Positions 38,166-40,100 of a stretch of DNA of 64,000 bases are shown one piece after another. The first letter of the stretch is position 1. The number at the start of each line of letters is the position of its first letter. Source of the stretch: Eledone cirrhosa (taxonomy: Eukaryota). The stretch spans positions 413,788,001-413,852,000 of the forward strand of contig OZ024740.1 of the NCBI GenBank assembly GCA_964016885.1. The letters run 5' to 3'. The translations under genes and the position numbers were made by a program. The notes under the pieces were generated by a model. It did no database searches. It was not told where the DNA came from and was given only the letters and a program-made list of their open reading frames with translations.

Positions 38166-38974
38166 GTTTGTGTACAGATGTGGGTGCGAGCAGATATGTG
38201 TGTGTTCAGAGTGCGTGAAATTTTATGTGTGAAGATACCATTTTAAGATTACACAACCTATCCACATAAACAAAGGATGTTTGTCGATAGATGAAGCAGT
38301 AAATTTTAAACTCCCAATATTCAGTTTGATCCGAAACACATCATAAAACAAGATCGTAAATTTGCTGCATTTTAAGCAGCATGGAAAACTAGTAAACTAC
38401 AGTTAATGTCATCAACAAACACAGATCATGAGGTGAATAGTCTATAATGCATTATTTGTTTTTGTTGGTGTTGTTGCTGTTGTTTAATTAACCACAGGTC
38501 AGCATCGATTGTGTTAACCTATTTTCTATTGTGTTCAGAACAAAATTGTTATTATTCATAAAGGAATAATATATTTAGCATAACCCATCATGGAGTGACC
38601 AGAATTATAATCAAATGTATTTAAGTTAGCCGTTGGAGTTACAACATCAATTACTAATTACTTACAATTCTACAATGTAGAAATAACAGCCAAGTACCAC
38701 AAAATATATATATATATATTTATTAAAATAACAGATTAAAGTTTTATATATATATATATATATATATATATATATATATATATATATATATATATATATA
38801 TATATATATATACAAGTTAATATAAATTAATATATGATAAACACAAAAGTGTTTGTATTGCAAAAGACGAAGTTAGCTAGAATGAAATAAACTAATTCAA
38901 ATAAAATATAGTTTGCCTGTCTCGATTTAAAATAATAAATCAATAAAAACAAACCCATATTGGCAAATAGCCGT

Positions 38975-39110
38975 GATACCTGGACAAATTTAAATTTCAA
39001 AATCCAAACCTGTTTCGCAGACAAATTTGAAGTTCAAAACCCAAATAAGTTTCGCAATGATAGTATAAAAAGTGAAATATTCCAATTTTCTGTGCTTCTC
39101 AACAGGTATC
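38975..39110 (-). ncRNA. Variant (U3:A8) hammerhead ribozyme, inverted copy
   Basis: Reverse complement of 39568-39703 with core and stems retained. Confidence 0.7.
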
Positions 39111-39567
39111 CAGAAAAATTAGGATGTTTCACCTCTAAATAATTTAGAAGGTCTGGTTCACTAGCGCAAACGCACGAGGTTTTGCACGAGGTTTTCCAGC
39201 TCACTAGCTATATTTTATTTGAATTAGTTTATTTCATTCTAGCTAACTTCATCTTTTGCAATACAAACACTTTTGTGTTTATCATATATTAATTTATATT
39301 AACTTGTATTTCTCGGCTCAGAAATTCTTCTTTCTTGAGCTAATTAATTGTAAAGGACTGTTTGAGTTTATAACTCTGAATATAATATAATATTACGGCT
39401 CCTTTTTGTTGAGCTAATTTTTAATCCCATATAAACGGCTGTTATTTCTAGCGCCATAAATATGAGATAGCTAGTGAGCAGGAAAACCTCGTGCAAAACC
39501 TCGTACGTTTGCGCTAGTGAACCAGACCTTCTAAATTATTTAGAGGTGAAGCATCCTAATTTTTCTG

Positions 39568-39703
39568 GATACCTGTTGAGAAGCACAGAAAATTGGAATA
39601 TTTCACTTTTTATACTATCGTTGCGAAACTTATTTGGGTTTTGAAATTCAAATTTGTCTGCGGAACAGGTTTGGATTTTGAAATTTAAATTTGTCCAGGT
39701 ATC
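39568..39703 (+). ncRNA. Variant (U3:A8) type I hammerhead ribozyme with extended stem III
   Basis: GATACCTG/CAGGTATC stem I, core TTGAGAA, GCA/TGC stem II, GAAAC, 26-bp stem 39632-39657/39665-39690, GUC site at 39693-39695. Confidence 0.72.
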
Positions 39704-40100
39704 ACAGCTATTTGCCAACATGGGTTTGTTTTTATTGATTTATTATTTTAAATCGAGACAGGCAAACTATATTTTATTTGAATTAGTTTATTTCATTCTA
39801 GCTAACTTCGTCGTTTGCAATACAAACACTTTTGTGTTTATCATATATTAATTTATATTAACTTGTATTTCTCGGCTCAGAAATGCTTCTTTCTTTGAGC
39901 TAATTAATTGTAAAGGACTGTTTGAGTTTATAACTCTGAATATAATATAATATATATATATATATATATATATATATATATATATATATATATATATATA
40001 TATATATATATATATATATATAGAGAGAGAGAGAGAGAGAGAGAGAGAGAGAGAGAGAGAAGTAGTTCCAGAACAGTTAGTTCAGTTCGGTCTGAATCAG

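Follow-up and report, generated by a model that had tools for sequence, protein, structure and literature searches.

The locus described here is an insertion with two arms, built from a non-coding hammerhead repeat that is likely a non-autonomous retrozyme copied by Hydra-type Penelope enzymes, and we assign this reading a probability of about 0.7. It lies in the window, the 64,000-nucleotide stretch of DNA that was analysed, from a microsatellite-rich animal genome of 3.0 Gb. The initial annotation had proposed a non-autonomous, Penelope-mobilized, retrozyme-like family with an atypical hammerhead. This proposal is supported by covariation in the core and stems, by the lack of a constant link to an open reading frame and by Penelope-type insertions, and we regard mobilization of a non-autonomous family by Penelope as very probable.

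Target tracts flank the element on both sides, (TA)n at 38745-38812 and (AT)n at 39940-40022, in agreement with its proposed position within (TA)n. The inverted arm (38810-39211, minus strand; unit positions 74-475) terminates at a fixed short end and overlaps the direct arm by 4 nt at 39208-39211; compared with each other, the two arms show 9 differences in 402 nt. The direct arm (39208-39953) consists of a 5'-truncated partial unit of 186 nt (39208-39393, plus strand; unit positions 374-560) running head-to-tail into one full unit of family A (39394-39953, plus strand; 560 nt, 31.6% GC). The repeat period of ~560 nt that had been claimed thus matches the unit, but only 1.33 units are present in the window. 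A tail of ~80-85 nt, from the fixed short end (39868) to the long end, occupies 39869-39953 on the plus strand and is found on one arm only. The longest ATG frames in the doubled unit encode 43 aa (plus strand) and 61 aa (minus strand), and the unit is, as had been stated, without a meaningful open reading frame. Tandem hammerheads are not what we found at this locus: there is one hammerhead per strand, and no two share a strand. The window copy itself therefore cannot release a monomer by double cleavage; it is a daughter, not a source. Elsewhere in the window, LINE-type remnants (24480-29754, 47133-49780 and 52457-56387; Pfam matches to RT, AP endonuclease and zf-RVT) are unrelated to the unit, and a stop-free frame of 714 codons at 4338-6482 (minus strand) has no Pfam match.

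The full unit carries a type I hammerhead at 39568-39703 (plus strand), with its core around a three-helix junction and positions 3 and 8 paired in the U3:A8 form. Stem I (39568-39575/39696-39703) consists of eight Watson-Crick pairs. Core positions 3-9 (39576-39582) read U3 U4 G5 A6 G7 A8 A9, and are followed by a 3-bp stem II (39583-39585/39622-39624) with a 36-nt loop, by GAAAC at 39625-39629 and by GUC at 39693-39695, which continues into the 3' strand of stem I (39693-39703 together). Hammerhead numbering predicts a cut after C39695. All of these parts, including the variant core UUGAGAA, had been named in the initial annotation, and each was located. The long helix (39632-39657/39665-39690) was likewise described correctly as 26 bp in which G-U is the sole non-Watson-Crick pair (18 Watson-Crick and 8 G-U pairs, zero mismatches), but a 2x2 U-U loop that sits between it and two core pairs had gone unmentioned. 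The inverted hammerhead (38975-39110, minus strand; core start 39102, predicted cut after 38983) keeps the whole motif, of which the core had been claimed. A relaxed descriptor gave 2 U3:A8 matches in the window, as against 1 in 30 shuffled windows, and the fold z-score was -3.5 for the plus strand and -1.4 for the minus strand. An Rfam scan of 36000-43000 at E<=1 yielded 36 weak matches and no hammerhead family, in line with the expectation that the U3:A8 motif escapes standard searches. The window also holds two canonical type I hammerheads (CUGAUGA), inverted relative to each other at 41762 (minus strand) and 41926 (plus strand), in which stem III is short and palindromic; these belong to an unrelated, common family, and similar motifs occur in ~20 of the fetched loci.

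The long stem III is the product of a 37-nt duplication. The two tandem copies (39622-39658 and 39659-39695, plus strand; 31/37 identical) jointly make the GAAA (39625-39628) and the long stem, and the second GAAAC is now GGAAC. Each copy holds a 26-nt quasi-palindromic insert, with 11/13 and 13/13 palindromic pairs, values reached by 1.1% and 0.08% of shuffles, and the two copies pair with each other in the palindromic register. Collapse to one 26-nt insert is seen in 2 of 153 family-A copies, and a related family, C, has a single 12-nt palindrome (6/6 pairs). Penelope hammerheads whose helix III is palindromic are considered to be cleaved in dimeric form (PMC4209133, PMC6765202). From this we infer that the duplication would build the dimer helix within one unit, as an intramolecular copy.

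A DNA search of the genome with the unit returned 3418 candidates, of which the best 40 were scored. The family-A core pattern had at least 706 exact matches in the genome and its control had none. This pattern allowed all four combinations at positions 3 and 8, and the first 100 of the 706 matches listed contained 99 U3:A8, 1 C3:G8 and 0 mixed pairs; it demanded G10.1, which leaves out a small subfamily with U3-G8 and A10.1 (U3-G8 with G10.1A, 3 of 35 copies). Among 101 copies, core position 7 is free (T 72, G 22, A 7) and the remaining core positions deviate in 0-6. Variants common to at least four insertions, which are inherited and have passed through replication, kept the base pair in 17 of 23 cases; those private to one insertion kept it in 9 of 76 and broke it in 67 (Fisher p 3e-8). 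For these counts overlapping loci were counted once, and two arms at locus L016 that belong to another family are included in the arm-end counts given below and removed from the inherited/private test and the cut-site passages; alignment A3 is alignment A2 minus one badly cut row. We rejected A-to-I editing as an explanation for the G-U pairs, as private A>G changes (24 at 164 A sites) show no excess over T>C (31 at 221 T sites). Inherited polymorphisms, which are unpolarised, comprise 42 A/G and 27 C/T.

Five related non-coding families, A to E, were recovered, with monomers of 521-590 nt where measured; they are 62-79% alike, and B to E were reached via diverged neighbours. A hidden Markov model run over the fetched loci found no family beyond these. 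The 3:8 pair is U3:A8 in two families and C3:G8 in three, so that positions 3 and 8 change together across the five, and one of the C3:G8 families has U4A. Family B (521 nt) has CUGAGGA in 53 of 58 copies and is young, with arrays, including one of ~20 units of 521-522 nt (G000:C2:407495136-407505979; L183-L186, L189, L197, L198) whose units differ from one another at stem II position 10.2 and at positions 3 and 7 of the core. Family C has the core CAGANGA, with A at position 4 in 97 of the first 100 listed of 522 matches; at least 522 copies carry A4, and their position 7 and stem I vary as in a working motif (L202-L230). Family D (546-548 nt) has CUGAGGA, and family E (590 nt) has UUGAAAA in 15 of 18 copies together with a U10.1-U11.1 mismatch. 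A4 in C, the U-U at 10.1-11.1 in E and the drift at stem II 10.2 in B could reflect a relaxed need for catalysis.

We then examined covariation in an alignment of 16 rows, with the structure written from the window copy. Double-sided changes occurred at 6 of the 8 pairs of stem I, which was 100% paired, and at 2 of the 3 pairs of stem II; stem III had 12 one-sided changes and double-sided changes at 0 of 26 pairs. These comparisons support the initial annotation, with covariation at 3:8 and in stems I and II; the changes in stem III are one-sided. The full tree split the U3 from the C3 families (99/99), with the U3-G8 copy beside the split. We claim no order of core changes, however, since the U3/C3 split appeared in only 28% of bootstrap trees once the ribozyme columns were dropped; both trees leave out L257, in which no anchor was found.

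The strictly conserved core positions are identical in all five families (11/11), compared with 86 of 197 columns outside the ribozyme. The unpaired catalytic bases G5, A6, A9, G12, A13, A14 and C17 are the same throughout, in families that are only 62-79% alike. This identity argues against a fossil hammerhead whose RNA fold is kept for stability or enzyme binding rather than for cutting, as does the covariation of 3:8, a pairing important to the active fold (PMC3088659). A fossil would accommodate the U4A family, the weak stem II and the small U3-G8 subfamily with G10.1A, and we consider it highly improbable. Against activity, 8 of the 9 retrozyme dimers predicted in Xenopus did not cleave in vitro (10.64898/2026.07.22.740005). 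Judged from these comparisons of sequence, the hammerhead is a real, selected motif, and there is a good likelihood that the ribozyme is active.

The initial annotation had noted that loop II is nearly complementary to sequence just 5' of stem I. This complementarity is real, and its length was understated about twofold. The leader (39542-39567, plus strand) can form a helix of ~23 pairs in three segments, which we call helix P, with loop II (39586-39610). Its energy is -14 to -22 kcal/mol in all five families, values matched by at most 4 of 2000 shuffles. The nine proximal pairs are retained by 127-134 of the 136 family-A copies compared, and one of these pairs is U-A in 77, U-G in 43 and C-G in 11 of the 136. 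Within family A, cognate leader/loop pairs were no stabler than permuted ones (-16.36 versus -16.29), and across families the cognate leader was the best partner of only some loops.

Helix P might act as a lock that forms first and leaves the ribozyme slow or off, so that the same Penelope route would copy mostly uncut multimers, or it might protect the circle. In the single-sequence minimum-energy fold of the window copy the leader hairpin, helix P, forms and the hammerhead does not; the hammerhead fold lies within 0.4 kcal/mol of the minimum without the leader and 3.6 kcal/mol above it with the leader, energies that refer to nested folds, as the program is unable to form pseudoknots. The linker from the far end of helix P to stem II is 5-9 nt in families B, C and D, which seems short for a helix of ~22 bp, and a lock would also fit the finding that 5' ends do not accumulate at the cut site (see below). 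However, helix P encloses exactly 18 nt, namely the 5' strand of stem I, the core and the 5' strand of stem II, so that a pseudoknot from both stem ends is possible and the two structures can coexist. Loop II extends to 66-86 nt in 48 of 141 family-A copies and to 84 nt in E with helix P unchanged, stem I beat helix P in 4 of 5 circular monomers folded, and the catalytic positions are invariant. The long linkers and the circular folds weaken the case for the full helix as an obligatory off switch, which we rejected, and we consider a lock in general unlikely. Pseudoknots that align stems I and II are known, with stem II down to one pair, and are needed for speed (PMC3088659). We somewhat favour a model in which helix P acts as a brace rather than a lock.

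Next, we surveyed insertions at 94 places with 163 arms. Arms ended at one of two sites in 141 of 163 cases (74 long, 67 short), and 124 of these 141 ended in (TA)n; the two fixed end sites lie ~80 nt apart. Opposed arms were present at 60 places, 44 of which combined one long with one short end. The tail is mostly 75-81 nt long in family A; it measures 63-76 nt in B, 77 nt in C and 80 nt in D. Fifty-three arms crossed a head-to-tail junction, dimers and trimers occur, and copies longer than one unit continue into themselves. The family thus has the non-coding, low-GC, head-to-tail unit of non-LTR retrozymes together with the tandem and inverted insertions, one-end tail and microsatellite target of Penelope derivatives. 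A common short interspersed repeat breaks family-A arms, four times near the short end (ends at L026, L028, L103, L123 and L125), and a tandem pair resembling it lies at 10184-10551 of the window.

Two hammerheads on the same strand, from which release of a monomer is possible, were found at 9 of the 94 places and in the family-B array; the window locus is not among them. Loci for the analysis of cut-site passages were picked by full-length matches or by motifs that lie within the ribozyme or a short way downstream. Of these passages, 135 of 139 ran through the predicted cut site, and the 4 stops gave no pile-up of 5' ends there over the 2.2% background (p 0.37). Read-through at the background stop rate implies that the template was not a cut linear monomer, leaving a circle or uncut RNA, and given the conserved catalytic bases a cut-and-ligated circle is the simpler reading. 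Other retrozymes form cut and ligated circles, with ligation by RtcB (PMC7229834). Private variants common to all copies of an insertion numbered 13, and 213 were in one copy; with so few insertion-wide variants and no A>G excess, there is no single-molecule trace of a circle. On the whole, we think that the family template is probably circular.

As to transcription, the block at 39428-39452 (plus strand), whose 3'-terminal 14 nt do not differ among families A, B, D and E, is a promoter candidate. The idea of an snRNA-type promoter comes from newt satellite 2; we rejected it for this block, which had no match to the element common upstream of the two U2 genes compared. The genome contains a tandem array of more than 35 U2 snRNA genes with a 2.2-kb period (G000:C3:307349256-307453739).

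We also identified an autonomous element of the kind that could supply the enzyme. Locus L161 (G000:C1:437199000-437208900) is a tandem array of a young, abundant Hydra-type Penelope with a 3531-nt period and an intact frame of 784 aa. It inserts in (TA)n and has two fixed ends ~80 nt apart with a 78-nt tail. A U3:A8 hammerhead of its own is present in 26 of 27 copies, and 5' truncations cluster ~40 nt upstream of the cut site predicted for this hammerhead. By the features given for the Hydra clade (PMC8557442), and judged by eye, the element has RWR for RWK, DKT, CxCx5C, a C-terminal GIY-YIG, (TA)n targets and a hammerhead; a Pfam search of the frame gave no match. Further Penelope families in the genome show 30-55% protein identity. 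At the DNA level, the unit showed no similarity to the single autonomous element with which it was compared.

A piece of Penelope open reading frame was present near 25 of 220 places, and three of these were seamless same-strand joints (L305:3578, L313:3596 and L180:2744). At L320:3325-3418 a retrozyme arm lies opposite a Penelope arm across ~90 nt. In (TA)n at L109:1949-2748, the left arm consists of 60 nt of an autonomous Penelope 3' end that runs seamlessly, on the same strand, into family-A sequence at a point 5 nt upstream of the cut site predicted for family A; the genome held no second chimera at this joint. We read the retrozyme-Penelope chimeras as probable products of template switching. 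Deletion is the rival origin: each of the four chimeras occurred once among the 220 places, and deletions could give rise to similar joints.

The units could alternatively be pseudo-LTRs, that is, 3'-terminal fragments of an undiscovered autonomous Penelope element. Most Penelope hammerheads are single truncated motifs (PMC4209133), Xenopus retrozymes resemble pseudo-LTRs (10.64898/2026.07.22.740005), and with the best 40 candidates scored per search a rare parent could escape. Against this, the unit is not regularly attached to a reverse transcriptase-endonuclease frame: 134 family-A places (loci of 3-6 kb) had 2 seamless joints, at differing unit positions and with differing Penelope elements, as anticipated by the initial annotation, which held that a constant joint would make the unit an ordinary pseudo-LTR. 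Moreover, beyond one unit the copies run into themselves, in the 53 arms, the dimers and trimers and the ~20-unit B array. We therefore consider a pseudo-LTR origin very unlikely.

For a retrozyme copied by Hydra-type Penelope enzymes, the following route would account for these observations. Source loci with at least two units would be transcribed, and each hammerhead would cut after GUC as a monomer, with the duplicated palindrome supplying helix III. Helix P would serve as a pseudoknot brace between the ends of stems I and II, replacing loop-loop contacts and letting the 2-3-bp stem II and the variant cores remain active. The monomer would be ligated into a circle, by RtcB if as in other retrozymes. 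A Penelope enzyme would prime from both sides of a (TA)n break, at two TA-like sites ~80 nt apart, and run round the circle, which would leave opposed arms and copies of more than one unit. We put forward only tentatively the fuller version, in which the braced scaffold and the frozen dimer helix together keep U3:A8, U4A and U10.1-U11.1 cores active while Hydra-type reverse transcriptases copy the circles and switch templates with their own RNA. If true, it would provide a natural mutational series of cores on one scaffold.

The U3:A8 core is not the novel part, because it has been reported in Penelope hammerheads of Schistosoma (~1,300 motifs; PMC4209133) and is active in vitro (PMC3088659). 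Retrozymes as Penelope derivatives are in print (10.64898/2026.07.22.740005), and a large helix III has been published for fungal and protist Penelope elements (PMC4209133). Our literature search returned nothing on a long leader-loop II helix, a duplicated palindrome or a U4A family, although figures, supplements and Lunse et al. 2017 may show U4A or the brace. The weak, palindromic helix III and poor cleavage of Penelope-linked hammerheads are presented as unexplained (PMC4209133, PMC6765202). Here the five sister families offer matched natural constructs, monomer-type (A, B, D, E) and dimer-type helix III (C, collapsed A), as well as three states of the core and a candidate brace that is conserved; in vitro transcription would allow all of these to be assayed. 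A named helper clade is indicated by the chimeras and the common ~80-nt tail, and the Penelope route becomes testable as an enzyme-template pair. A braced hammerhead that works as a monomer and tolerates core changes would also widen search descriptors, since Rfam recovers none of these motifs.

The family resembles metazoan non-LTR retrozymes as described in PMC7229834 and 10.64898/2026.07.22.740005 in its non-coding, low-GC, head-to-tail unit with a type I hammerhead, in the occurrence of monomers, dimers and arrays and in its co-occurrence with Penelope. A highly paired predicted circle is a further shared feature, and that of the unit here is 65% paired (z -4.35). Unlike the metazoan retrozymes tested (170-400 nt), its units measure 521-590 nt, inside the 51-972 range of Li et al. 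2026, and it differs from those accounts in its U3:A8 or U4A core, a loop II of 29-86 nt paired to the leader, a duplicated 26-bp stem III and mostly dispersed, two-armed insertions. With the hammerheads of Penelope pseudo-LTRs (PMC4209133) it shares the U3-A8 core and, in family C, a palindromic helix III; the fungal Penelope hammerhead of the same report also has a large helix III, which in that case allowed monomer cleavage. The Schistosoma Cercyon U3-A8 motifs given there are minimal, with a long stem II and short stem I, whereas here stem I has 8 bp and stem II 2-3 bp; here, too, helix III arose by duplication, in an animal, and the unit has no attached frame. Among pseudoknot-stabilised hammerheads (Perreault et al. 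2011, PMC3088659), the pseudoknot tested was 6 bp long in a microbial type II ribozyme; helix P has ~23 bp and belongs to a eukaryotic retroelement. Non-autonomous Chlamys elements generally share 3' ends with their autonomous partners in the account of Craig et al. 2021 (PMC8557442), and the unit here is without 3' similarity to the autonomous element compared. To the Hydra-clade Penelope elements of that study it is close in its (TA)n targets, partial tandems, inverted 5'-truncated copy, one-end tail and hammerheads, and differs in the length of the tail, which is ~80 nt here and 30-40 nt there.
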